Source of the DNA: an uncultured Rhizobiaceae bacterium
GTDB lineage: Bacteria; Pseudomonadota; Alphaproteobacteria; Rickettsiales; UBA1997
Direction of reading: 5' to 3'
DNA length: 64,000 nucleotides
Assembly (NCBI GenBank): GCA_964493475.1
Contig: CAZBNS010000001.1
Location: forward strand, 9,099 to 73,098
Shown here one piece after another: positions 1 to 24,953 of the stretch (the stretch's first letter is position 1; each line of letters opens with the position of its first letter). The notes under the pieces are model-generated. The model was not told the origin of the DNA, made no database searches, and saw only the letters and a program-made list of their open reading frames with translations. The translations under genes and the position numbers were made by a program.

Positions 1-3000
1 AAAGTCAAAAGCATTCTAGTCCAAGCATTTTTATTTTGTTGCGCTGGCGATAACGAAGCATTTAAACCAGATTGCTGAGTTCTTAAAGTATTCTGTTTAA
101 ACTTCTCAATAGCCTGTTGCTCTGACATTCCAGCTTTAATATTAGCTTGTATATTTGCATAACCACCGAATATAACTGAACCAATATCGCCATACCTAAC
201 CATTGATGTAAAAATCTCTGTAAAGTTAATGTTGTCAATTCTTCTTCCCAATCCCCCCAAAGCCTTTTCTAATTTCACAAATTCAAAATCATTTGTCATT
301 GCTCTTTTTAACTCTTGATTATATCCACTATTTAATCTCTCATTGACAAAATCTATTTTTGTCATGTAGTTTATTGTATTTTTTGGATGTATTAATCCGT
401 CTTTAAAGCTACCTAACCAATCAGTAGTCTTAACATCTATTGAGTAATTGCTTATAGCTCCCATCTGTCTAAAAAACACAGGAAAACTAGCGCCTATTTT
501 AGCAACCGTCCAGTTAGATAATAACTTGTTGAATAATTTGTTTGTGGTCGTGTAATACTCTTTTCTACTACTCAACGATTGATTATTTAATTGCTCTCGC
601 ATACTCTTAATAACGCCATCACCAAACTTATTTTTTATAGCAAATTGGATATCTGGACTATAAAATATATCTGCTATCTGTTTATATTTTTCAGACATAT
701 TAATTAGGTATTCCGTCTGTTGAATATTACCTACCGCCTTATTGTAAGCATCACTGACTATAGGAATTACATTTTGCACTACCCTCTCTTTTGTAAATGA
801 TAGACTTTTATTTTTTCCATCAAGATCAAGTGAAGTTCCAAACACACTAAAATTATTTTCATGCTCTGATGTAGCTGGCCAGTAATTACTTTCTTTTTTT
901 AGGTCGGTATTGAACAATCTTATAAACACATCATTCACTTCATCGTAATTATCAACACTATTCATTAAGGAATCTGCAAAGGCTTTTTCATTTTGAGAAA
1001 GATTTGAGATTAAATCATTTATTTGTTGGTCGCCATAATGTTTATAAAAGTCAGCTTTCTTTTTATCATTCTTTATGGAGTTATAAATATCCATTATTTC
1101 CATTTTTGAAATCTTTTCTGGTGCTGCGCTCCTAGGGTCGTAAAGGTCATAATCCTTAACTCTCAAATCTCTATTGCTCGCCAGCAACTCCCAGTCATGC
1201 TTTACATTTAAGGTTTCTTTAAGTTCGGCATTCAATCGGTTTTCTTTGTTGAATACTATTTGATTAAGCCTATTCTCATCAAGCTCTAAATTATACTTTT
1301 CAGCAATATTTTTATTCGTTAGGTAATTCATTATGTCAAATTGATTGCCTACTTGATTTACATACAAGCTAGTTGTGAGTTTTGTTTTTAAAGTCTTCTT
1401 ATCTGCCTTGTTATTGTTGATAGCTTCAAGAACTTCATTTTTATTTACCACTTTTTTGTTTCTTTTCAATTCATCGTGCATTAACTTCTCGTCTGCCGAA
1501 TATTTTTTTATATTCAAGACATCATTATAAATACTCTCAATCAATCCTCTACTGCTATCTTTCAAACCCTGTGACTTATAATTCAAAAACTTTTCTTTTA
1601 ATGAATAGGCAAGCGTATCTTTTAGCTCCGCATATTCTAAGCCTCCTTTGAGATTAGCTAACTCATTTATTGCTTGCTCTTGCGAAATCTTGTTGTAGCT
1701 TCTCAAATCCTCAAAAAACTTGTTGACTTCATATAGGTATTTTCCGACCTTGCGGTTTCCTTGTTTTACATTGTTTGTATGAAATAGTTCTTTATCTATC
1801 TTATCTTTAAGGTGGTTCTTAATTTGCGAATCAATGAGGTTATCAATCTTTTCAATAATGTTCCTCTTGTTTGCTTCAAGTTGTTCTTGTGTTTGAATAT
1901 TCTTTATATCGGTTATGAATTTAGATTTATTCTCTGGTGATAAACTGCTTTTTTGGATAATGTCTGTTAGCTGTGATTGAACTTGCTTTATGTCCTGTTT
2001 TGTTCTAGCTTTCAAATATCTAACATCATCTTTTAGTTTGCTGGTTTCTTTTTTGATTGAATCAAAATCATTTTCTGTCATAACTTTTAGTTTGAAGTCT
2101 TTTGATTTTTCAATAATTTCAATAAACTCTTTGTAATTAAATGGAAGAGATGATAACATTTCTTCGGCTTGATTAGATTGATTTATACGGTTTTCGTAGT
2201 TTGCAACTCTGGAAGAATCAGAACTTTTATAAATGTAATTACCACCTCTGTCTTCTTCAATCGCATTGAATAAGTCGTTTATATCAAGGCTTCTATAATC
2301 TTTATTTCCAAAAAATCCGTCTTCAACTGCTTTTTTCAATATGTAATCTGCTGTGTTTTCAAATTTTGTTGCTCCTTTTTTCTCTGTAGATTGCCTTATT
2401 AAATCATTAAAACCCATTGATTTTAACTCGCCGCCACCATCATAAATTCCGCCCTGTTGTTTAATCCATTGGCTTAATGTGGCTGGTTGTCTAGGTAGTG
2501 GCTGATTAGCTACTTTTTCCATGAATTTGAGTTGTTTATAGGCTACTTCGTAGCCATCAAAATTAAAAGAAGCATTTTTATTTTTTAGCTGCTTTAGTGT
2601 TTGTTGGAGGTTGCCAACATTGTCTTTTATGCTCTCTCTTATTTTATCAAAATTATCTTGAGACACATCCTTGTTTAAACTAATGTTGTTTAGCTCGGTA
2701 TCAACAACTTTTCTCTCATTCTGTAAAATATTGTCAACGATATTTAAGATGTTTTCTTTGCTGTCTTGCTTGCTAATTATTTCCTTAATGTATTTAGCTC
2801 CTTCAACATAGTTATTGCCATTATAGGTTGTATTGTCATTTTCTCTCTTTATGAGATTAATGACTTCTTCCTGTAAGCCTGGGTTTCTCAAAGTGTCCGC
2901 TACCTTATTAATAGTATTATCAGCCTCAATTTCGGTAGCTCCATTATTGATTAACTCTTGTCTTCCGTTGTAAAATATGTGTCCTATTCCGGCACCACCA

Positions 3001-3929
3001 GCACCACCGATAGCTCCAAGTAATCCAGCATAAAGTGTATCTTGGGCTATCTCTTTTATATTTTTTTCTCTAACGCCAGTAAACACCATAGCGGTGTCTT
3101 CAATTATGTTCTGTAAACTTTCTTCAATACCCTCGCTTAATGCACCATAAAATATTGATGTTATTACATTATTGCCTTTTATAGCGCTTAATAGTTTTTC
3201 CGTTCCATAATATTCAACAAATGCGTTAGCTGATGCAACACCAATACTTAGAGTGTTAGCCCAACCTCTTGACATTCCACTCTCAATACTTTCTTCATAT
3301 AATTCTTGTTGTCCGCTTATTCCGTATAAAGCAGATATTAAAGCTGGGGATTTTAAGGCGATTGTTGCCATTATATTTGAAGTGACACCGCCTAAATCAT
3401 AGCTAACTCCGTCTTTTTCTACCTTTGATAATCCTAACTCATCTATAAACTTTTTTTGAGTGTCTCTCATTTCTAAAGCCGCTTCATCTAAATTAGCTAA
3501 AAACTCGTCCAAATCCTTTTCTGTATATTTTGATTTATCACTATAAACTAATCTTCCATATTGTGCTGCTACTTTGTGTCCTATACTTCTTTTCGCCGAT
3601 TGATACATATTAATAGGAAAAGCAGTAAACCCTCTTGAAAAATCCAAAGCTTTACTTACTAGAAAATTGTTTGCAAAATCATTTGAATATTTTTTATTGT
3701 CATCCTGTGATATATCAACCATTCCTACAAAATCTTCTCTTGATTTATTTTTAAACTGAACCAAGTCATTATAATTTATCTTTACTGGATCATTAAAAGT
3801 TGAATTAACAATGTTTTTAGTGTTGTCATTATAAAAGCTGATGTTGTCTTCCGCAACTTCAACCGCACTATTTATATCAAAACCACTATTTTTTACCTCA
3901 ACTGCGGATTCTATATCAAATTCTTCCAT
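1..3929 (-). CDS. Very large virion-associated protein (internal/ejection-protein position); C-terminus beyond window edge
   Basis: Open frame on the minus strand from ATG at 3929 to position 3 (1309 codons, no stop). It is missing from the ORF track only because it is open-ended. Gly-rich hydrophobic stretch LLGAIGGAGGAGIG is encoded around 2990-3040. It is the last and largest gene after tail-tube-sized and internal-protein-sized genes. Function is inferred from size and position only. Confidence 0.45.
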   Translation of the reverse strand, partial: MEEFDIESAVEVKNSGFDINSAVEVAEDNISFYNDNTKNIVNSTFNDPVKINYNDLVQFKNKSREDFVGMVDISQDDNKKYSNDFANNFLVSKALDFSRGFTAFPINMYQSAKRSIGHKVAAQYGRLVYSDKSKYTEKDLDEFLANLDEAALEMRDTQKKFIDELGLSKVEKDGVSYDLGGVTSNIMATIALKSPALISALYGISGQQELYEESIESGMSRGWANTLSIGVASANAFVEYYGTEKLLSAIKGNNVITSIFYGALSEGIEESLQNIIEDTAMVFTGVREKNIKEIAQDTLYAGLLGAIGGAGGAGIGHIFYNGRQELINNGATEIEADNTINKVADTLRNPGLQEEVINLIKRENDNTTYNGNNYVEGAKYIKEIISKQDSKENILNIVDNILQNERKVVDTELNNISLNKDVSQDNFDKIRESIKDNVGNLQQTLKQLKNKNASFNFDGYEVAYKQLKFMEKVANQPLPRQPATLSQWIKQQGGIYDGGGELKSMGFNDLIRQSTEKKGATKFENTADYILKKAVEDGFFGNKDYRSLDINDLFNAIEEDRGGNYIYKSSDSSRVANYENRINQSNQAEEMLSSLPFNYKEFIEIIEKSKDFKLKVMTENDFDSIKKETSKLKDDVRYLKARTKQDIKQVQSQLTDIIQKSSLSPENKSKFITDIKNIQTQEQLEANKRNIIEKIDNLIDSQIKNHLKDKIDKELFHTNNVKQGNRKVGKYLYEVNKFFEDLRSYNKISQEQAINELANLKGGLEYAELKDTLAYSLKEKFLNYKSQGLKDSSRGLIESIYNDVLNIKKYSADEKLMHDELKRNKKVVNKNEVLEAINNNKADKKTLKTKLTTSLYVNQVGNQFDIMNYLTNKNIAEKYNLELDENRLNQIVFNKENRLNAELKETLNVKHDWELLASNRDLRVKDYDLYDPRSAAPEKISKMEIMDIYNSIKNDKKKADFYKHYGDQQINDLISNLSQNEKAFADSLMNSVDNYDEVNDVFIRLFNTDLKKESNYWPATSEHENNFSVFGTSLDLDGKNKSLSFTKERVVQNVIPIVSDAYNKAVGNIQQTEYLINMSEKYKQIADIFYSPDIQFAIKNKFGDGVIKSMREQLNNQSLSSRKEYYTTTNKLFNKLLSNWTVAKIGASFPVFFRQMGAISNYSIDVKTTDWLGSFKDGLIHPKNTINYMTKIDFVNERLNSGYNQELKRAMTNDFEFVKLEKALGGLGRRIDNINFTEIFTSMVRYGDIGSVIFGGYANIQANIKAGMSEQQAIEKFKQNTLRTQQSGLNASLSPAQQNKNAWTRMLLT

Positions 3930-3941
3930 ATCACATACCTA

Positions 3942-5465
3942 CTATATTTTTTTAACATCAATAATCTTTCCTGTACTATCTTTTAAGACCATTGCTTCGT
4001 TGCCGTTTTTATCTTTCATTCTAACATAACCGCCATTGTTCAAATTTTTATTCCCAACTGCTCCGCTTTTTCTATCATAAGAAATTACATTATTACCAAA
4101 GACAACCGCATTTGTTTTTTCTTTTAGAGATACAAACCTGTCCTTCACATATTGTTCTTTTATTGCATCCATAATGTTGTTAACGCTATCTAGCGTCTTT
4201 TGATCGCTTGCATTTAAATTTATCTTGTTTTCTTTTGCGACATTAAAAGCATTTTCATAAAAAAACACTCTATCATCAATGTATGAATCAGAATCGTTTT
4301 TAAAGAAGTCATTTATTCTATTATTTATTTGTTCGCCAGCGGTAGTAATGAACCATCTATCACCATCTTTTAGTCTTTTGTTATTTCCCATAATTTGATT
4401 TAAAGCTAATGTAGTATTAGATAAAAAGTTTTTATATTGAGAGTTTGTAATATTGTTGTTTGCCCTAGCTTCTCTTACAGCGTTTCTAAAATCAATTACA
4501 CTTTCTACATTGTTAAGATCAGAGTTTCTTATTTTAAATTTTCCATCCTTATTTTTTATATTAAAAAATTTATATCTTGAATCTAGTTCTGTTAAAACTA
4601 CAGCATCCATTATTTTTTGTTGCGGTGTTTTTCTTAAGCTATACACACCATCTTTCTCTTCCTCATCAATAGATTTTTTTAGTTTTCCTATATAGGAAGT
4701 TATTTTATTATAATCTTCCTGTGATAAATCATATTGTTCTTGTATTGTTTGTGGTTGTTGTATCCATTTATCATAATTACTTACAAAGGTATCTGTATCA
4801 TTCTCAAACAAGCCATTAAAATGATTAAATGCACTACTTAGTTTTGTTTGATTGAAAGTCTTATTTATTTTTTCAACATCACTTGTTTTAATAAGATTTT
4901 GTCCCTTAGTTCCAGTTTGTAAAAGAGTTTTATCCATAACTTGTTTATTAATCTGATAATCGGCTGTAGTTTCCGGTGTTAATGTTCCATTAAACATATT
5001 ATCATAATAAACTTGAGCAGAACCAAGCTTGCTATCAATAAATGATAAAATTGAATCTCTATTTTGAGAATCCAATTTATTTTTATAATTCTCATTAGCT
5101 TTTATTAAATAAGTATTTTTCAAAGTTAAATATTGTTTTTCAATATCTAATTTCATTTCATCAGGTAAACCAGCAGACAATTTATTTTTAGTTTCCATAA
5201 AATCCTTTCCTAATTTTTCAGGATTAGCCGATAAATTACTATATGAATTATACATTGAATTAGATAAAGAACTTGTGGCATCTAGTAATAAGCTATTATA
5301 TTCTAATTGTGCTTGTTTAAGTCTTTGTTTTTTTATAATATTAGCTCTATCTTCAGCAAATTTTGAAACACCAACTACATTTTGTGAAACTGCTTGTATT
5401 ATTCCACTATTACTAACTGGATTTACAATCGCCGTTTTTATTTGCTTTTTATACATTGTTCCCAT
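3942..5465 (-). CDS. Phage structural protein, internal virion protein candidate
   Basis: 507-aa ORF, tightly packed (12-nt gap to the next gene), between a small internal-protein-sized gene and the giant gene. No recognisable motif. Confidence 0.3.
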   Translation of the reverse strand: MGTMYKKQIKTAIVNPVSNSGIIQAVSQNVVGVSKFAEDRANIIKKQRLKQAQLEYNSLLLDATSSLSNSMYNSYSNLSANPEKLGKDFMETKNKLSAGLPDEMKLDIEKQYLTLKNTYLIKANENYKNKLDSQNRDSILSFIDSKLGSAQVYYDNMFNGTLTPETTADYQINKQVMDKTLLQTGTKGQNLIKTSDVEKINKTFNQTKLSSAFNHFNGLFENDTDTFVSNYDKWIQQPQTIQEQYDLSQEDYNKITSYIGKLKKSIDEEEKDGVYSLRKTPQQKIMDAVVLTELDSRYKFFNIKNKDGKFKIRNSDLNNVESVIDFRNAVREARANNNITNSQYKNFLSNTTLALNQIMGNNKRLKDGDRWFITTAGEQINNRINDFFKNDSDSYIDDRVFFYENAFNVAKENKINLNASDQKTLDSVNNIMDAIKEQYVKDRFVSLKEKTNAVVFGNNVISYDRKSGAVGNKNLNNGGYVRMKDKNGNEAMVLKDSTGKIIDVKKI

Positions 5466-5480
5466 TATAACACCTTTTGA

Positions 5481-5960
5481 TTATTCATCTTCTTTTAAAT
5501 TGTCAGACAAACTAAATAAAGAACTGCTAATACTACCCCACATGCTAGCCCTTGCAATTTTATTATTAACCGCTTGTTGTCCTCTTAAAATAGTAGCTTG
5601 TCTTTCTGCATTCTTTTGAATTGTCTGCACATCTTCGCCAAAGTTTTTAGCGGAATGTTCCAAGTTTTCTTGAACGGAACCGCTTGATGTTTTTATGCCT
5701 CTTTGAATTGCATTATATTGAACTCTACCAATATTTTCATTAAACTGTTCTCTCATTTCGTTTACTTGTTCCAAAGCTGACAATTGAACTTGACTTGCTT
5801 GAATACCTAAAGAGGCATTTTGAGATTTTAATAAATTGTAATTGATAGTAGAACCAACTATATTGGCTAATGCGCTCGCACCATATAGAATATTTTGAGA
5901 ATTTTTTGAATCTTCGTCGTCTAATAAACTATAATTATTTTTATTATTTCTACGAGCCAT
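5481..5960 (-). CDS. Phage structural protein, small internal virion protein candidate
   Basis: 159-aa Q/N/S-rich ORF immediately after the 852-aa tail gene (2-nt gap). Call is by position only. Confidence 0.3.
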   Translation of the reverse strand: MARRNNKNNYSLLDDEDSKNSQNILYGASALANIVGSTINYNLLKSQNASLGIQASQVQLSALEQVNEMREQFNENIGRVQYNAIQRGIKTSSGSVQENLEHSAKNFGEDVQTIQKNAERQATILRGQQAVNNKIARASMWGSISSSLFSLSDNLKEDE

Positions 5961-5962
5961 AT

Positions 5963-8521
5963 TTATCTTCCGTAATTAATATTTAACACAATTGATTTAA
6001 CTTCTAAATAATCAAATCTGCTTTCTATTGTAAATTTATTCTCATTTTTCCAGTCGCTACAAGCATATAAATTAAAAATATTTTTATCAGAACTTACTGT
6101 CTGATCATTAAATGTTAATTTTGTTGTATCATTAGTTGTAATTGTGGCTTTAGAAATACGAGATTTTATAGTTGTAGTTTGTCTGCCAACACTTAAATTA
6201 TTACTAATTAATTTGCACTTTATATCTAAACCAATATAAACAGTATCTGTTATTGTTTCGCTCAAAGTGATTGCTCCATCAATAACGAAATAATTACCAT
6301 AATCTTTCATATCAGAATAAACCCTTACTTCAAGATTATTATATATACCTAAATCACTAATTTCATTACTATTATTAACTGAAACGATACTTGTGAAATC
6401 GGTTTTCAAATTTTCTAATTTTTCTAAAAATAAAACTTCATTTCTTTTTATCAAAAAATAAGTAGAATCACCCAAAATAATCATATCTTTTATTTCACCA
6501 TTAGAACTTTCAAATCTTGTAAAAGCATTTATATTTTGTTCTAACAAAACATTTCCTACAGCAACAGTTCCATCATCATTTACTAAATAAACAAAGTTCC
6601 CATCTTCAAAATTACTGTTAAAATCAATAGCCATTCTTACCGGATCTTTAATCATTTGATTATTTAATAGAGTTAAAGCACTTGCATTAAATGTTGATTG
6701 TTCGTAGTTATAAACAAATGTGTTTACATTTAATCCTTTTCTGTCAATAAATAAAGTTACTCCAGCAATATCTTTAGGTTCCGCCATTCTTTTACTTCCA
6801 ACTGATGATGTTTGTGCGAAGAATATACTGTTCGGTGTTAAATTATTTTCGTTAGCTACAAACTCAGCGCCGCCGCTAAATACTTGTAATCCTCTATTTC
6901 CATAGAGATTAACTATTTCGTTATTTTGTTTGCTTGATAAATCAATATTTATTCCATCGTTATCATAATTTCCTACATTATTAAAATCATGATATTGACT
7001 TAACCTGCTGCTGCATATATTTAATGGTTTTTGTGCTGAGCCGCCAAACCATAATCTTTCTTGATAAAATAAACAAGAGTTAGGCCATCCTCTAGTAATG
7101 CTCCAAATTGGTTCATAACCAGTTATATATTTAAAATTTGTAAATGCATCTGTTGTATAAAAAGGAATTATGGTATAACCAAATACCTTTGTTGTTGAGC
7201 TATATTCTGTAATTCTAAATCGTCCACCACCTCCATCAATAATTTGTCCAACACTAGCGCTTGTAAAAAAGTTTGCACTAGCCGTCAAATAACCAGTTCC
7301 TTCTTCTGTTGATGGTGTTAAAGTTTTTGTTGATTCTGTTGTTGATGTTTCACCATCAAACGCAAAAACTGGAATTTTATTTAAAGTAAATTCGCCAAAA
7401 GACCAGCCGCTTGAAGTTCTTTGCAATAATTGCGGATGTATATTGGGATGAGTAAAAACCATCATATTTTCAGTCTGAGTAACCTTTAGCTTTTCAAATA
7501 AATTTGAAGTGAGTATTGAGGCTTGGAGTGATGCAATAAATACATCATTTTTATAAATAAGAATATAGCCATCTTGAATACAGATTATATATTGGTTGTC
7601 GTTGTCAAAAACAAAATCAAATAATTTGGCATCTGCAGCAGTTGCTCCTAAAATACCGTAAGTCATACTGTCCACTTGTAATTTGCTGACTATATAATCA
7701 TTATCTTTTTTTACTAGTTTGAATTGTGTGTAATTTGTATCACTAGGAATATTTAAATCTATATTTAAAATAGTATCGCTGCTAACTTCAAACTCCACTA
7801 AGTCAATATAATTATTATTACTATCCTTGCCTTGAAGAGTTAATTTAGTTTTGTAAACTGCGTCATTAATTAAAGTCACAGATACACTGCCTGGATTTGT
7901 AGTAAATGCGCCAGTATTTTGATTTAAACCTCCAGCAACAGAACCGTCATAATTCAATGAAGCATTTACAATAGGTTTTTTTGTCCAAGTTCCGCCGAAT
8001 GTAAATGGAAGAGTTTTTTGTGTATCATAACCAAAACCAGCATCTACAACATTTACTTTTGTAAAATGATATTCAAAATAACTGGTATAAGGACCATGTG
8101 GTTGTGTTTTTTGTAAATCACAAGTAAATTTTCCGGTTGTGGTTTTTTTTAAAGTTATTCCATTAAATCTTAAAAAGTTAATAGTTCCAGTACTTGAACT
8201 AAAATCAATATCAAATATTGCACCTGTATTGTCAGCTAGTAAATTTGTAGTTTCAAATGTATTTATATTGTCAAATAAGTAGCTAACTGTTCCACCAAAC
8301 CACGATGTAACAGTTGGTTGAGTGATTCCAGTTGTATCAATAGTTTTTATGCTATCAATCTTTTTAGTTCCCATTCTAGTTTTAAAACCGCCAAAAATCG
8401 TAGGAATATAATTTTTTATATAACTTGCAGAATCATCTAAAATACTTAAATCAGTTCTCTCATTAGACAACTGGTTAATTTCGCCCTTTGTAAATTTAAC
8501 TCTTCTTTGCTGAGTTTTCAT
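5963..8521 (-). CDS. Tail tube/nozzle protein candidate (T7 gp12-sized)
   Basis: 852-aa ORF directly following a 194-aa ORF. The sizes and order mirror T7 gp11 (196 aa) and gp12 (794 aa). No motif-level confirmation is possible by eye. Confidence 0.4.
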   Translation of the reverse strand: MKTQQRRVKFTKGEINQLSNERTDLSILDDSASYIKNYIPTIFGGFKTRMGTKKIDSIKTIDTTGITQPTVTSWFGGTVSYLFDNINTFETTNLLADNTGAIFDIDFSSSTGTINFLRFNGITLKKTTTGKFTCDLQKTQPHGPYTSYFEYHFTKVNVVDAGFGYDTQKTLPFTFGGTWTKKPIVNASLNYDGSVAGGLNQNTGAFTTNPGSVSVTLINDAVYKTKLTLQGKDSNNNYIDLVEFEVSSDTILNIDLNIPSDTNYTQFKLVKKDNDYIVSKLQVDSMTYGILGATAADAKLFDFVFDNDNQYIICIQDGYILIYKNDVFIASLQASILTSNLFEKLKVTQTENMMVFTHPNIHPQLLQRTSSGWSFGEFTLNKIPVFAFDGETSTTESTKTLTPSTEEGTGYLTASANFFTSASVGQIIDGGGGRFRITEYSSTTKVFGYTIIPFYTTDAFTNFKYITGYEPIWSITRGWPNSCLFYQERLWFGGSAQKPLNICSSRLSQYHDFNNVGNYDNDGINIDLSSKQNNEIVNLYGNRGLQVFSGGAEFVANENNLTPNSIFFAQTSSVGSKRMAEPKDIAGVTLFIDRKGLNVNTFVYNYEQSTFNASALTLLNNQMIKDPVRMAIDFNSNFEDGNFVYLVNDDGTVAVGNVLLEQNINAFTRFESSNGEIKDMIILGDSTYFLIKRNEVLFLEKLENLKTDFTSIVSVNNSNEISDLGIYNNLEVRVYSDMKDYGNYFVIDGAITLSETITDTVYIGLDIKCKLISNNLSVGRQTTTIKSRISKATITTNDTTKLTFNDQTVSSDKNIFNLYACSDWKNENKFTIESRFDYLEVKSIVLNINYGR

Positions 8522-19226: not shown

Positions 19227-19658
19227 TTATTGATAATGATGTAAGTTGTTTTTAGTTTGTTCTTGTTTGTTATTTTTTGTTTCTGTTTGTTTTTGTTTTT
19301 TAATTTCGTCCATATTAAATAAATCAGGACTAGGGAGGGATGAGCTACCTAATCCTGTTACCTGTTCTAAATCAGCGATTGCTTCGTTAAAATTTAAAAC
19401 AGTATATCTTAAAAACTTGTAGCCAAGTTTTGTCATTAAATTGTATTTTTCGCAGTCTTTACTATACCCTGTAATTGAAGTATGTCTTGCCTTTGCAGAT
19501 ACAACACCCTCATATTCAACCAAAATAGACTTGTTGTTCTTACTTACTTTCCAATCTGCTCTGAATTTTCTTGTAGAACAAAACTTGTATTCAGGCTCAA
19601 CAATATAACCAAGCCCAGTAAATATTTGTTTAAAATTATCTTTTGTAAGATTCGTCAT
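19227..19658 (-). CDS. Restriction-endonuclease-fold nuclease candidate (Vsr/DUF559-like)
   Basis: The pattern EYKF...RKFRADW...ILVEYEG...H...D.EKYN...GYKFLRY fits the D...E.K-type nuclease fold seen in small phage resolvase/nuclease proteins. Confidence 0.35.
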   Translation of the reverse strand: MTNLTKDNFKQIFTGLGYIVEPEYKFCSTRKFRADWKVSKNNKSILVEYEGVVSAKARHTSITGYSKDCEKYNLMTKLGYKFLRYTVLNFNEAIADLEQVTGLGSSSLPSPDLFNMDEIKKQKQTETKNNKQEQTKNNLHHYQ

Positions 19659-20062
19659 GATATTAACATTGGGTTATTACTCATAAAATTAATTGCTTTT
19701 TCTTTAATAGGTTTTATGCGATCAATCACATATTGAGGATCAAATCCAGCCCAATTACAAACTTGCACAAACTCTTCGTTTCTCATATTAAACCACATTA
19801 GCGCTTTAATTCTAAATGTTTGAGCTAAATTCTTTTTTGATTGACTTTTTAAATCTACTGCAGCCTGTAAAACAACAGCCTTCCATAGCGCAATTTCGGA
19901 CTTTACTGAGAGATTTTCATTGTTATAAATAAAATCAAAATCACTACTTTCATTGTGAAGGGTTAAACTTCTGGTTTTTAACTCCTTTAGATATTTTGAT
20001 TGAGAGTTTTGTTTAAATTCTTCAATATGGAGTGGGGAGATTAGGTTTTTATTCTTTTTCAT
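19655..20062 (-). CDS. Hypothetical early protein
   Basis: 135-aa ORF directly after the Cro-like gene, with a 4-nt overlap with the next gene. Confidence 0.3.
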   Translation of the reverse strand: MKKNKNLISPLHIEEFKQNSQSKYLKELKTRSLTLHNESSDFDFIYNNENLSVKSEIALWKAVVLQAAVDLKSQSKKNLAQTFRIKALMWFNMRNEEFVQVCNWAGFDPQYVIDRIKPIKEKAINFMSNNPMLIS

Positions 20063-20067
20063 AAACT

Positions 20068-20262
20068 TTAAATATAAAAACTGTTAGCTACAAGTTTTCC
20101 GCCTGTAGCTTCAGTTATTCTTTTAATAACTTCCCTTTTTGGTATTCTTCTGCCTGATATGTAGTTGTTTATGCTTACATAACTAACTTTTACCTTTTCT
20201 GCAAATTTTCTTTTCTTTTCAGCAGTATTTAGGAATCTCTCTGAGAATTTTTTAATATCCAT
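20068..20262 (-). CDS. Cro/YdaS-like HTH regulator
   Basis: 64 aa with an HTH segment (KFAEKVKVSYVSINNYISGRR). It is divergently transcribed from the cI-like repressor. Confidence 0.65.
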   Translation of the reverse strand: MDIKKFSERFLNTAEKKRKFAEKVKVSYVSINNYISGRRIPKREVIKRITEATGGKLVANSFYI

Positions 20263-20409
20263 TAAAAAACATTATGTAATTAACTCTGTAATATAAAAAT
20301 AATTACATTTTTTATAAAGTCAAGAACATAATGTAATTATAATTTTTTAGTTGCAAACAACAAAATGTTTTTGTATTATATGGTGTAAGTCAATATAAAA
20401 TCTAATTAA
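20263..20409. promoter_or_regulatory. Divergent immunity-region promoters with repeated operator motifs
   Basis: Plus-strand promoter TTGCAA (20351-56), 17 nt, TATTAT (20374-79) lies upstream of cI. Minus-strand TTGACT (20318-23) faces cro. Three copies of ATGTAATTA/TAATTACAT are at 20274-82, 20300-08 and 20331-39. Confidence 0.5.
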
Positions 20410-21084
20410 ATGGATAAAGACAATAAAGAAAATATAATTGGAAATAATATTAGAAAGATAAGAGAAACCAATAAAATAAGCAGAGATGAGCTTGCAAAAA
20501 TTATTGGTGTAGGTTCCCAAATGATGCAATATATTGAAAGAGGTGAACGAAAAGGGGTTGCTGAATGGGTTTACCAATTACCTAAAGCCTTAAATTGCTC
20601 TTATGACGAGTTGTTTGGAGAAAAAGAATATATAAAACAAGACAATTCGTTAGTAAAACTAGGCTATTTTGAAGAAACAAAGGCTAAGTGTGATAATTCA
20701 TGCTGGGAATATAGTGAAGCTACGGAAAAATTGTATTTTGATAAAGACTATTTACAGAAAATTAAAATAGTTCAGGGTTATGATAATATAATTGTTATAA
20801 GATCTGTCGATGATAGTATGTATCCAACAATTCATAATAATGATTATGTTTTTGTAGATACAAATAACAAAGACATCAAAAACGGCATGATATACATAAT
20901 TAATGAGGATGGAATCTTAAAAATAAAAAGAATAAGAAAAATGCCAACATCTTCAAAAATTGAAATAATGTCTGACAATGAAAACAAATATTTATATCCA
21001 AACTATGAAATTGATACCATAGGCGAAAAAATTAAACCAATTGTTTGCGGCAGAGTATTGTCTTTTACTAGAAATTTAATTTAA
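20410..21084 (+). CDS. cI/LexA-type repressor (XRE HTH + S24 peptidase domain)
   Basis: N-terminal HTH (IRKIRETNKISRDELAKIIGVGSQMMQYIERGER). The C-terminal S24 signature VDDSMYPTI...ILKIKRI contains the Ser/Lys dyad. Confidence 0.85.
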   Translation: MDKDNKENIIGNNIRKIRETNKISRDELAKIIGVGSQMMQYIERGERKGVAEWVYQLPKALNCSYDELFGEKEYIKQDNSLVKLGYFEETKAKCDNSCWEYSEATEKLYFDKDYLQKIKIVQGYDNIIVIRSVDDSMYPTIHNNDYVFVDTNNKDIKNGMIYIINEDGILKIKRIRKMPTSSKIEIMSDNENKYLYPNYEIDTIGEKIKPIVCGRVLSFTRNLI

Positions 21085-21106
21085 CCAATAAAAAAACAGA
21101 ATAAAA

Positions 21107-21631
21107 ATGCTATCCTTTTTAAAATATTTCTTAATTGTATTAAATATTTTCTATGCGATTCTATTATTTAATAACGAAGAATATGGTCTCATAATTTTTC
21201 CATTATTTTTTATTTTCCTAATTTTTCTAACTGAAAATATTTTGATTTTTCTACTTAAAAAGGATACTTTAATAACAAGTATCACTGAAGTAAGAAAGCA
21301 TAAATTTGAATTTGGCTTGGCTTTTAAGAGTAATTTCTTAAATGTTTTGGTTGTTGTTATGATTTTAATTTGTTTAAGTCTGATTTTTAGTAATCATGAT
21401 CTACTTATGGAAACTAGAGGTCATCAAATTGAAATATCTAAAAAAGCTAAAGAACTTGAAGTATATACAATTGCCATAAGGCAACACAGAAATGAAATAA
21501 ACGAGCTAGAGCAAAATCAAAAAGATATAACAAAAGAGCTAGAAAGAATAAAAAAAGAAATAGAGGAATTGAAAAAACAACAAAAAACAAATGAGATAAT
21601 AAAACAGAAAGCGATTAGATTAAATTTTTAA
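21107..21631 (+). CDS. Membrane protein with C-terminal coiled coil (lysogeny-expressed passenger gene)
   Basis: 174 aa with 3-4 hydrophobic helices, then a K/E-rich heptad region. It starts 22 nt after the cI stop on the same strand. Confidence 0.5.
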   Translation: MLSFLKYFLIVLNIFYAILLFNNEEYGLIIFPLFFIFLIFLTENILIFLLKKDTLITSITEVRKHKFEFGLAFKSNFLNVLVVVMILICLSLIFSNHDLLMETRGHQIEISKKAKELEVYTIAIRQHRNEINELEQNQKDITKELERIKKEIEELKKQQKTNEIIKQKAIRLNF

Positions 21632-21647
21632 GATAACAAAGGAAAAC

Positions 21648-22664
21648 ATGGAAGAAAATAAAGGAAATATTATAATATACGAGCTAGAAGATGGAACTTC
21701 TAGAATTGATGTTAAAGTTGAAAATGAAACTGTATGGTTGACAAAAAATCAAATAACTCAACTATTTAGCACAAATAGACAAAATATAGAATATCATATT
21801 AAAAATATATATGAATCCAACGAATTGCAAGAAAGTTCAACTTGCAAAAAAATTTTGCAAGTTCAGAGAGAAGGAAGTAGAGATGTTAAAAGGGAAGTGG
21901 ATTTTTATAATCTTGATATGATTATATCTGTAGGTTATCGTGTTAACAATGTTGCAGGCGTTAGATTCAGACAGTGGGCGACAAAGCGTTTAGCTGAATA
22001 TATGGTTAAAGGCTTTACTTTGGATGATGAAAGACTAAAAGGAAAGGGCAACAAGTATCTTGATGAACTTGTTCAAAGAATAAAAGAAATTAGGGCAAGC
22101 GAGCTTAATTTTTACCAAAAAGTAAGAGATGCTTTTAGTTTGAGTAAAGACTATATGGAAAATAAAAAAGAAACAGGTTTATTTTTTGCAAACATACAAA
22201 ACAAATTATTTCATGCAATAGTAGGAAAAACTGCAGCTGAGTTAATTTGCGAAAGAGCAGATCACGAGTTAGCTAATATGGGATTGTCTTGTTTTAACGG
22301 CACAAGAGTTAGAAAAGCTGATGTTATAATAGCTAAAAATTATTTAAAAGAAAACGAATTGAAATCACTTGAAAAATTAGTTGTTATGTTTCTCGATTTT
22401 ATAGAAAATTATATAGAAAGAACCAAAGAACCTATATATACTAATGATTGGAAATATAGGGCTGACGAATTTTTAAATTTCTACAAATATAAATTGCTAG
22501 ATGGATATGGAACAAAAAGTAATAAGGAAGCTGAGGATTTTGCTGAAAGTGAATATACCTTATTTGACAAAGAACGAAAAAGACAAGAAAAAATAGAAGC
22601 TGATCAAAAAGATTTAAAAGAAATAGAAGAGCTAAAAAAAGAACTCAAGAAAATCAAGAAGTAA
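21648..22664 (+). CDS. RhuM-family protein
   Basis: Conserved blocks match RhuM-family proteins along the whole length: WLTKNQITQLFSTNRQNIEYHIKNIY, YNLDMIISVGYRVNNVAGVRFRQWATKRL, IRASELNFYQKVRDAF, AKNYLKENELKSLEKLV. Confidence 0.8.
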   Translation: MEENKGNIIIYELEDGTSRIDVKVENETVWLTKNQITQLFSTNRQNIEYHIKNIYESNELQESSTCKKILQVQREGSRDVKREVDFYNLDMIISVGYRVNNVAGVRFRQWATKRLAEYMVKGFTLDDERLKGKGNKYLDELVQRIKEIRASELNFYQKVRDAFSLSKDYMENKKETGLFFANIQNKLFHAIVGKTAAELICERADHELANMGLSCFNGTRVRKADVIIAKNYLKENELKSLEKLVVMFLDFIENYIERTKEPIYTNDWKYRADEFLNFYKYKLLDGYGTKSNKEAEDFAESEYTLFDKERKRQEKIEADQKDLKEIEELKKELKKIKK

Positions 22665-22670
22665 TTAGGT

Positions 22671-22690
22671 TTTTCCTGATAGCAGGAAAA
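22671..22690 (+). terminator. Hairpin at the end of the cI-membrane-RhuM operon
   Basis: TTTTCCTG-ATAG-CAGGAAAA lies 7 nt after the RhuM stop. There is no clean U-tract, so strength is uncertain. Confidence 0.35.
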
Positions 22691-23075
22691 ATTCCAAAAA
22701 TGAAGCAGGGGAAAATAATTAATTTGGAGATTTTAATCTTTAGTTTTTGTTTGTTTATCACTAAATAAATCTTCCTTATCAATTGTTTATAACTTAAATT
22801 TCTCATTTCACATATCCTAAACCATATCATAATTGACAACTTCTTAATCATCAAGTTGTATAGTTTAATATTTAGCCAAACACGGCACAATCAATGTTCC
22901 AATGATGTTTATTATAAAATGTCCTAAGAGCATTTTTAATCATTCTAAGTCAATTATAATCTTTAAGAGCATTTTGGGGTAAAATTAGTTAAATTGCATT
23001 AAAAATAATTAAAAAAATTTTAAAAGAATAATTACAAAAATTCATCCAATATAAACAAAATGTAGCTTTATTAAT

Positions 23076-23128
23076 AATTACATTTTGTAATTAAATTACT
23101 TGACAATATAAAAACATATTGTTATTAT
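23076..23128 (+). promoter_or_regulatory. Early rightward promoter with palindromic operator
   Basis: The 17-bp palindrome AATTACATTTTGTAATT (23076-92) abuts TTGACA (23100-05), 17 nt, TATTAT (23123-28). Additional TAATTACA/TGTAAT copies lie near 23030 and 23190. The core is the same as in the cI/cro region. Confidence 0.55.
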
Positions 23129-23578
23129 ACTAATAACAAAGTTGTTTTTAGATTGTAAATTTAAAATTTACCCAGTATATGTAAAAAAATGTAATATACT
23201 ATCAAAACTAAAGAGTTTTGAGCGGTATCATAAAACCATAGACCCATTAAGGGCAACTTGTAATAATAGTTGGTATTTATGTCCTGGAGAATTTAAAAGA
23301 ATCTAGGGAAAATAATTTTTTATTTTAACTGCTTTTTTAATTATCATACGGGGAAGTTTTGTTCTTCTAAATTCAACTAAGGTTATTTCAAAACTTCCTC
23401 ACTCAATTATTGTCATTCATAAATTGACTATACTTTTTATTAGTTTTCCATAAAGAATTTTTTTCATAAATAGTCAATTTATAAATGATAGTAATCACAC
23501 TTTATTATCAGACATCGGCAAGTAAATGGAGGCTCCTTTTAATGACTTGCCTTTTATCAATTAAAATAAGAGAAAATT

Positions 23579-23728
23579 ATGTTAAGAATAGTATTATATG
23601 TATTAGCGAAATTTCATTTTATAACTGGTGCAAAATTTAGGTCAATATTAGCTGAAAGATATTTAGTTTTTGAAAATCTTGATTTTGATAATCCTACAAA
23701 TTTTGTAATAAATGATGAGGAGATGTAA
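23579..23728 (+). CDS. Small ORF (49 aa) coupled to the RecT-like gene
   Basis: ATG at 23579. Its stop TAA ends 1 nt before the ATG at 23730. It is below the ORF-track size cut-off, and coding status is uncertain. Confidence 0.3.
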   Translation: MLRIVLYVLAKFHFITGAKFRSILAERYLVFENLDFDNPTNFVINDEEM

Positions 23729-23729
23729 A

Positions 23730-24953
23730 ATGGATTTAAAAACAATAACTAAAGATACTGATACTTTAATCAGTGCTTTAAAACAACATAACATAAAAGA
23801 TTGTCAAAAACCTTTTGCAATCAAGCTTATTAGTGCTCTTGAAGATTTAATGAATAATACAACAGTATATGATTGGAAAACTAATTCAAATACTCCTGTT
23901 AAATTAAGTCAAGAAGAAGAACGACAAGCTTTTTTAACACTTGTTGATGGACTTTCTAGGGTTAACAACAGCGGTTTAAGTGTTAATGATCACGAGCTAA
24001 TTTATTTTATAAAAAGAGGAAAACTATTAACTGTTTCTACTCACTATTCAGCACCTTTCAGAGTTGCTAAAGATATGGGGTATATGATAGTTCCAACATT
24101 CTATGAAATTTATAGTAATGAAGATTTTGAAGTTAGTGAAAGAAGAAATAATGAGGACAAAGTTTTATACGATGTAAAACACAAGCAATTAGAATTTGAT
24201 AGAAGTATTACGGCAGAAAAGCTAACTAATAAAACTTTTAAAGGTTTTGCATTAAGACTTTCTGTTTCAACTATTCAAGTAGATGGAAAAATTAACTTTC
24301 TATTTGAAGCTTTTACAAGTATGACACCTCAGCAAGTTATTGATAGAAGCATGAGGGGTGATAATGGAATCTTTAAATCATTTTGGCAAAAAGCAACTTA
24401 TGATCCTAAAACAAAGAAAAAATTAACAGATAGCAAAAAAGTTATTCTTAATGAATTAAATGAAAAATCAATTTGGCTTTCTGATACTAAAGCTATGGTA
24501 TATAAAACTCTTATTAGAGAAATCACTAGACCGTTGAGAGAAGCTTTGCCTCAGCTTGAAAAGATGTATCAATTTATGGATTACGAAGAACAAGAAGAAT
24601 TGAAATCACACGAGGACAATCCATTAAACAAAACCAGTAAAACAGTTGATACAACTTTTATGGAAATAAAAGATGTAGATCTTAAAAATCCAGATGAAAA
24701 TTTAAAGAAAGATGTTGCTGAATTGCTGCAGATGTATGATGTCAATCCTACATTGGCGGAACAACATTTAAAAGAACTTACTGATTTATTGAATAAAGCT
24801 AATGAAATTATAAATAATCAAGAAAGACAAAATGAAAAACAAAAAATAATAAATCAAAAAGCAAAATACATTCTAGCTGTAAATAGCAAAAATGAAAAAT
24901 ATAAAGAAACACTTGGAAAGCTGTTTAAAAAAAATAATAACACAAAGGTTTAA
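23730..24953 (+). CDS. RecT-like single-strand annealing protein
   Basis: The start was moved from 23712 to ATG 23730 (GAGGAG 7 nt upstream). Central blocks (ELIYFIKRGK...VAKDMGY, FKGFALRL, MTPQQVIDRS, KAMVYKTLIREITRPL) fit the RecT family. It is followed by a YqaJ-type exonuclease. Confidence 0.55.
   Translation: MDLKTITKDTDTLISALKQHNIKDCQKPFAIKLISALEDLMNNTTVYDWKTNSNTPVKLSQEEERQAFLTLVDGLSRVNNSGLSVNDHELIYFIKRGKLLTVSTHYSAPFRVAKDMGYMIVPTFYEIYSNEDFEVSERRNNEDKVLYDVKHKQLEFDRSITAEKLTNKTFKGFALRLSVSTIQVDGKINFLFEAFTSMTPQQVIDRSMRGDNGIFKSFWQKATYDPKTKKKLTDSKKVILNELNEKSIWLSDTKAMVYKTLIREITRPLREALPQLEKMYQFMDYEEQEELKSHEDNPLNKTSKTVDTTFMEIKDVDLKNPDENLKKDVAELLQMYDVNPTLAEQHLKELTDLLNKANEIINNQERQNEKQKIINQKAKYILAVNSKNEKYKETLGKLFKKNNNTKV

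Follow-up and report, generated by a model that had tools for sequence, protein, structure and literature searches.

A RhuM-family defence candidate and an orphan membrane protein gene behind a cI-like prophage repressor

In the immunity region of phage lambda the repressor gene cI is followed by rexA and rexB, and RexB is a small multi-pass membrane protein; superinfection-exclusion (Sie) membrane proteins such as those of the lactococcal Sie2009 type, SieA of P22 and gp15 of HK97 are encoded in lysogeny modules as well. Here we analyse a block of comparable position in a stretch of 64,000 nucleotides (hereafter the window; contig CAZBNS010000001.1 of assembly GCA_964493475.1), in which a cI-like repressor gene (20410-21084) is followed on the same strand (+) by orf174 (21107-21631), coding for a predicted membrane protein, and by a gene of the RhuM family (21648-22664). 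The gaps between them are 22 and 16 nt, exactly as stated in an earlier note on this locus, which had put forward the two genes behind the repressor as a candidate exclusion or defence module and did not recognise their pairing as a described system.

RhuM is among the most widespread uncharacterised conflict-associated proteins, with about 45-50% identity across phyla. A previous study in comparative genomics put it forward as a toxin-like domain that accompanies restriction-modification (R-M) and PrrC loci and in many cases is fused to DOC (PMC3710099). In phage tests of a representative of the candidate defence system PDC-S05, taken from a cold-seep microbe and expressed by itself in E. coli B, plating fell about 1000-fold for T7 and T5 and about 10-fold for T4 (bioRxiv 10.1101/2024.09.26.614923). 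What the locus described here holds is most likely prophage cargo of the ordinary kind rather than a new defence system of two genes. With moderate confidence we regard orf174 and RhuM as two independent cargo genes, both probably expressed in the lysogen, of which RhuM would be a defence gene and orf174 may code for an exclusion protein.

RhuM and its link to the repressor

The RhuM-family protein of the window (338 aa) matches the Pfam profile PF13310 (Virulence_RhuM) with an E-value of 2e-94 and 316 bits (cut-off 33.7) over profile positions 1-251 of 252, and the PADLOC profile PDC-S05 (PDLC04853) with 6e-126 over residues 1-335 (profile positions 1-331 of 336); the family-invariant residues are kept. 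These profile matches place it in the single-gene defence candidate PDC-S05. The earlier note had thus recognised a full-length RhuM protein correctly, and the PADLOC check that it had suggested returned, at the profile level, PDC-S05. Its view of the gene as a defence candidate stood; the novelty that it had suggested for the pairing does not extend to RhuM, which is already part of PADLOC and has one validated representative.

The three closest RhuM homologues (71, 59 and 58% identity) start 53, 21 and 15 nt after a repressor with helix-turn-helix (HTH) and S24 domains, with no gene between repressor and RhuM. In the two cases compared, those of the 71% and 59% homologues, the repressor shares 35-38% identity with the cI-like repressor of the window, and the locus of the closest homologue (71%) also has a divergent Cro-like gene. 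The conserved link is therefore that from repressor to RhuM, between which orf174 represents a lineage-specific insertion. The homologues next in rank, at 54-55% identity, stand alone on chromosomes, so that the nearest relatives occur either alone or directly behind a repressor, as would be expected of the single-gene system PDC-S05, and no class of neighbour is enriched. Two of the closest cI-RhuM relatives code for a SocA_Panacea (antitoxin-type) protein about 1-1.6 kb downstream of RhuM (locus L008, 2526-3002; locus L112, 3449-3913), of which the window has no equivalent.

A conserved pairing was examined in the nearest RhuM contexts, in 52 non-redundant IMG/VR loci and in 80 loci from genomes. 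The module of membrane protein and RhuM that the earlier note had proposed was not borne out by its own co-occurrence check: no homologue of orf174 was found beside RhuM anywhere we searched, and membrane-protein neighbours of RhuM were not enriched (4/39 against a background of 48/406 in the same loci, p = 1.0). A conserved orf174-RhuM pair was rejected on the grounds that orf174 has no homologues and that the closest RhuM relatives lack an intervening gene. A small transmembrane (TM) protein is encoded immediately upstream of RhuM, within a lysogeny module and with an integrase downstream, at three loci (L027, L076 and L085), among which L076 is the only one with a confirmed repressor directly upstream. 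This locus, an unrelated prophage of higher G+C content (2854-6248; IMGVR_UViG_3300045594_000642), parallels the window in its order of cI (HTH and S24), a 111-aa SHOCT protein with two TM segments, RhuM and a tyrosine integrase (gaps of 41, 32 and 109 nt); L085 and L027 have a 2-TM and a TM-DUF4352 protein, respectively, upstream of RhuM. These membrane proteins are unrelated to each other and to orf174.

In the wider set, RhuM recurs in repressor and lysogeny modules, and the earlier note's remark that the family is often found on islands and prophages proved right. At least 482 RhuM loci are present in viral contigs (IMG/VR). Among the 52 non-redundant ones, integrases or serine recombinases account for 13 of 44 downstream neighbours and ResIII helicases for 5, and the upstream neighbours include 6 N6-methyltransferases and 6 Cro/cI-type HTH proteins. 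RhuM genes are also located inside R-M operons and, in deposited phages, in the lysogeny modules of streptococcal satellites, Gordonia phages, a gut siphovirus and Wolbachia phage WO, and relatives at 41-52% identity are widespread in genomes across phyla. A repressor-profile search of the 80 genome loci gave one short HTH-only open reading frame (ORF) and no full-length HTH-S24 repressor.

The AlphaFold2 model of RhuM (pLDDT, the predicted local distance difference test, of 80) has an N-terminal beta/HTH module (about residues 1-130) and an all-alpha C-terminal half (about 134-338). In BFVD the N-module matches viral Bro-N, KilA-N, antirepressor/Ant and "repressor domain" proteins (E-values down to 3e-7). 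Modelled separately, the C-terminal domain (residues 134-338, window 22047-22661) reached a pLDDT of 91; neither this model nor the full one gave a significant Foldseek match in the PDB, and a profile search gave no PDB sequence relative. Its fold seems to be without a solved relative, and its invariant residues are E, R, S, E, D, Y, QNK (184-186), T and KNYL (230-233). A divergent Fic/Doc domain was considered here and rejected, given that there is no Pfam Fic match, no HxFx(D/E)GN motif among the invariants and no sequence or structure match in the PDB.

The genome to which the window belongs, a metagenome-assembled genome (MAG) of 1.69 Mb with an estimated contamination of 5%, codes for five RhuM-family genes, namely three full-length ones and two fusions of the RhuM N-module to Fic/DOC (PDC-S23-like). 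Loci of this set are L001 (G000:C95), L002 (C146), L004 (C112) and L005 (C13). One full-length paralogue adjoins a DUF3644 (HEPN-type) gene and an IS3 transposase; one of the fusions lies beside an N6/N4 DNA methylase and the other is followed by a GNAT gene. Five such genes represent a high load for a reduced genome. One Fic/DOC fusion, compared directly, shares residues 10-152 with the RhuM of the window at 41% identity and diverges beyond. The N-module is most likely the part that senses, targets or binds DNA, and the C-module most likely the effector, occupying the slot that the Fic/DOC toxin domain takes in the paralogues.

The immunity region and its cargo slot

The repressor (224 aa) combines an N-terminal HTH with a C-terminal S24 autopeptidase domain (Pfam profiles HTH_3, 4.8e-5, and Peptidase_S24, 2.1e-13) and is assigned to the transcriptional repressors of phrog_4 (2.5e-35). 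Divergent from it is a Cro-like HTH gene of 64 aa (20068-20262, -; HTH_3, E 1.7e-6), the first gene of the leftward lytic arm. The control region between the two genes (20263-20409) holds three copies of an operator core, ATGTAATTA, at 20274-82 (+), 20300-08 (-) and 20331-39 (+), and furthermore a PRM-like promoter identified by promoter scan (TTGCAA-17-TATTAT, 20351-20379, +) and leftward promoter-like sites (20323-20296, -) overlapped by the operators. A fourth control-region operator of the same core is found at 23075-23094, within the palindrome TAATTACAtttTGTAATTA (23076-23094), where it abuts the -35 element of a near-consensus rightward promoter (TTGACA-17-TATTAT, 23100-23128; 11 of 12 positions and an extended TG). 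This operator and promoter (23075-23128, +) form the PL-analogue that bounds the immunity operon, and an inverted repeat detected by repeat scan links the two control regions. The core has 9 matches in the window against 2.7 expected (0/100 shuffles reach 9), four of which fall in the two control regions. With operators present on both sides, two operator-controlled regions enclose the cI-orf174-RhuM block; the earlier note's comparison with the classical location of rexAB- and sieB-type exclusion genes was well founded, in that the immunity region is lambda-like.

Behind RhuM the operon closes with a hairpin of an 11-bp stem and a 4-nt loop (22668-22692, +), with a folding energy of -11.3 kcal/mol and a z-score of -3.26. 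The hairpin on which the earlier note had ended the operon is therefore real; it lacks a U-tract and was not called by the terminator scan, and so is not a canonical intrinsic terminator. A terminator-like site inside the RhuM ORF (21684-21703, +) is weak and within chance expectation and was not treated as functional. The close same-strand spacing of the three genes is compatible with co-transcription from the PRM-like promoter, and by this layout orf174 and RhuM are probably expressed in the lysogen. To the right, the rightward promoter is followed by about 580 nt without a convincing ORF (23128-23712), and only then by the first long early gene, whose product of 413 aa has no match in Pfam; the ORF-poor stretch holds a 26-nt inverted repeat of 88% complementarity (23406-23431 and 23470-23495).

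The surrounding 32 kb represent a prophage that ends at a tRNA-Thr gene, and the host flank is Rickettsiales-like, with a P-type ATPase 82-84% identical to proteins of Rickettsiales MAGs. Pieces of the prophage sequence (window 19600-23800) were found without differences in four DNA runs (X1-X4) from two studies, one of a bioreactor (2019) and one of wastewater (2023), with contigs inside orf174 in two of the runs. The assembly is therefore not an artefact, given the identical sequence in independent runs. The lysogen or the phage is thus present in engineered water systems of independent studies.

Three genomes of the same bacterial family have homologues of the cI-like repressor (37-38% identity), each followed by different cargo. 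In one of them (G006; L109, G006:C77, 4519-5864) the candidate defence pair PDC-M24A/PDC-M24B lies behind cI, in another (G002; L110, G002:C180, 3379-4257) a co-oriented P63C-domain protein starts 20 nt after it, and in the third (G038; L108, G038:C11, 3528-4691) there are two unknown genes. The P63C protein was compared with RhuM as a possible analogue, which hhalign did not support (probability 3.5%). The slot behind cI acts as a hotspot for moron and defence cargo, unlike a dedicated module.

The orf174 gene and its product

At 23% G+C, orf174 is of low complexity, and yet it is a genuine coding frame: its codon log-likelihood is -3.61 in frame, on a level with cI and RhuM, and drops to -4.3 and -4.6 in the other two frames, and 0/20,000 composition-preserving shuffles were stop-free. 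Many genes here have no Shine-Dalgarno sequence, and its absence at orf174 is therefore uninformative. Hydrophobic segments are predicted at about residues 3-21, 27-50 and 76-96, with an acidic loop between the first and second and a strongly basic one (six K/R) between the second and third, followed at the C-terminus by a K/E-rich helix, about 75 residues long, whose heptad pattern is moderate. This is in agreement with the small multi-TM protein with a C-terminal coiled coil that the earlier note had described. By the positive-inside rule, its N-terminus would probably face the cytoplasm and its C-terminus, with the coiled coil, the periplasm.

The gene is an ORFan. A word-indexed set of 5.8 billion clusters gave no homologue but orf174 itself, 1.84 billion representatives, searched exhaustively with phmmer, returned only itself and noise, and tblastn over 50,697 phage records as well as a six-frame search of 100 related genomes gave none. 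Compared pairwise, the orf174 product likewise showed no relation to the membrane or unknown proteins that adjoin RhuM in L006, L112 and L076. Family scans gave sub-threshold coiled-coil and TM resemblance only (Rz-like spanins, LysB, JetC, LmuB), with weak matches of residues 80-161 to phrog_89 (4.6e-5), phrog_13 (2.6e-4) and TIGR03495 LysB (1.4e-3). Like the Rz-like i-spanins, orf174 joins a TM segment to a coiled coil; unlike them, it has two extra N-terminal TM segments and sits outside a lysis-gene cluster. A displaced i-spanin was rejected in view of a score of 18.9 bits against a cut-off of 92.75, the lack of an o-spanin frame, whether embedded or adjacent, and the place in the immunity operon, and the resemblance is probably compositional.

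The 3' coding ends of orf174 and RhuM (21532-21576 and 22616-22660) are similar over 45 nt at 71% (KELERIKKEIEELKK against KEIEELKKELKKIKK). This stretch, the sole sequence link between the two genes, probably reflects the composition of A+T-rich DNA.

With low confidence, we suggest that orf174 may be an envelope protein of the superinfection-exclusion type. As with such proteins, it is a small membrane protein encoded in a lysogeny module, 22 nt after cI.

Competing explanations and comparison with known systems

We propose that the block is the immunity operon of a temperate phage integrated in an uncultured Rickettsiales bacterium. A PRM-like promoter would read cI and then two independently acquired cargo (moron) genes up to the hairpin, and the whole lies between two operator-controlled lytic promoters, much like lambda cI-rexA-rexB. 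RhuM is the conserved passenger of this repressor lineage, carried for some time, whose Bro-N/KilA-N-like N-terminal module would sense or target and whose C-module would stop the infection by other phages, in an abortive or inhibitory manner. The orf174 product would be an inner-membrane protein that acts on its own, as an exclusion-type envelope protein and not as a partner of RhuM. Several points weigh against this proposal. The defence role of RhuM is drawn from one heterologous test of a distant representative, reported in a preprint, and no published RhuM mechanism was found in the literature searched. The effector role of the C-module is suggested by its position, in a domain without structural relative, and the exclusion role of orf174 by its predicted topology, while the expression of both cargo genes in the lysogen is judged from gene layout. 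Lacking a U-tract, the closing hairpin does not fix the 3' end of the transcript. Finally, three other loci (L027, L076, L085) carry a small, non-homologous membrane protein just upstream of RhuM.

The last point would find a place in a RexAB-like, two-component abortive infection system, in which RhuM would be the cytoplasmic sensor and the membrane coiled-coil protein the effector or anchor, with the non-homologous membrane proteins upstream of RhuM elsewhere as analogous partners. The position downstream of cI is that of rexA-rexB, the repressor operon lies between two operator regions as in lambda, only 16 nt separate orf174 from RhuM, and the DNA that codes for the K/E-rich C-terminal helix is similar in both genes (71% over 45 nt). 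The similarity of the helices is, however, expected at about 26% G+C, and the predicted topology would put the coil in the periplasm, apart from a cytoplasmic RhuM. Neither protein has a PADLOC, Pfam or PHROG match of the RexA or RexB kind. Nor are two genes kept together downstream of cI, as orf174 is absent from all relatives and databases searched, the closest RhuM relatives have no intervening or adjacent partner, and TM neighbours occur at background frequency; PDC-S05, moreover, was defined and validated as a single gene. We consider such a system improbable. Equally doubtful, and if anything slightly more so, is a form of it in which the partner would be interchangeable, that is, RhuM and any small non-homologous membrane protein upstream would form a sensor/membrane-effector device driven by the repressor promoter, with orf174 in this role here and 2TM-SHOCT, 2-TM or TM-DUF4352 proteins in other prophages. 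If this were true, the non-conservation of the membrane partner would mean analogous replacement and not independence.

Other explanations concern one of the two genes or the purpose of both. That RhuM is a regulatory DNA-binding protein of the phage (Bro-N/KilA-N/Ant type) and not a defence gene, for example an auxiliary repressor or a manipulator of host or rival-phage transcription riding in the immunity operon, would agree with the structural matches of its N-module to Bro-N, KilA-N, antirepressor and "repressor domain" proteins, with the label "DNA-binding protein" that phage annotators give to homologues, and with its consistent place beside repressors and integrases. We hold this to be unlikely, as the family is frequent in R-M operons and in chromosomal, non-phage contexts, paralogues join the same N-module to Fic/DOC toxin domains, a representative expressed alone protected against phages, and about 45-50% identity across phyla would be unusual for a phage-specific regulator. 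A role of the cargo in bacterium-eukaryote interaction ("virulence"), with RhuM and perhaps the membrane protein acting on a eukaryotic host, is called to mind by the Rickettsiales-like host flank, by RhuM in Wolbachia phage WO and by the family name, which derives from a pathogenicity island, Salmonella SPI-3 (Pfam name). It appears very improbable in view of a RhuM sequence without evident signal peptide or secretion signal, of the spread of the family in free-living Bacteroidales, actinomycetes, xanthomonads and bacteria of the candidate phyla radiation (CPR), of its association with R-M genes and HEPN/DUF3644 (IMG/VR loci and loci of this genome; PMC3710099) and of one member validated as anti-phage. 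Also unlikely, finally, is that orf174 is a young gene, possibly de novo or fast-evolving, without selected function and inserted neutrally in the cargo slot. The lack of a homologue in any database searched and the very A+T-rich, low-complexity sequence (23% G+C) would fit such an origin, and the sequences from the four DNA runs, being without differences, offer no variation for an analysis of selection. Against it stand the 174-codon frame, stop-free in none of 20,000 shuffles at about 23-26% G+C, the codon usage resembling that of genuine genes, the well-formed architecture of three TM segments and an amphipathic coil, and the precise place between cI and RhuM with short spacers.

Under the preferred reading of two independent cargo genes current concepts are unchanged, and the main gain is to correct the idea of a new two-gene system. 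The locus nevertheless offers a clean natural example of RhuM wired directly into a phage cI operon, and the retention of the repressor-to-RhuM link in a small prophage clade argues that RhuM is useful to lysogens and tolerated when constitutive. The domain dissection, into a Bro-N/KilA-N-like N-module and a conserved C-module, gives targets for the study of the PDC-S05 mechanism, and orf174 is an inexpensive candidate for an exclusion protein not described before.

Compared with lambda cI-rexA-rexB, the passengers of the window likewise lie on the same strand downstream of a self-cleaving cI, in a block flanked by two operator-bearing control regions, and one of them would be a small multi-pass membrane protein like RexB. 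In contrast to lambda, there is no sequence relation to RexA, RexB or SieB, the pair is not conserved, and the RhuM representative works alone in the one published test. With the Sie-type proteins orf174 would share its small size, membrane anchor, lineage-specific occurrence, place next to the repressor and probable expression in the lysogen, and unrelated small TM proteins fill the same slot at other RhuM loci; it differs in having no homology to any characterised Sie protein (PHROG, phage-record and phmmer searches), its function and topology being predicted. The RhuM-N::Fic/DOC fusions (PDC-S23) have the N-terminal module of about 150 aa in common with the RhuM of the window, which differs from them by its canonical RhuM C-terminal domain without Fic motif or structural match. 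With PDC-S05 itself the window member, known from its sequence, has in common the length, the two-module build and the mobile, island and prophage contexts, while the anti-phage activity belongs to another representative; it stands out in that its gene forms part of the cI operon in an intact prophage of a Rickettsiales-like host.

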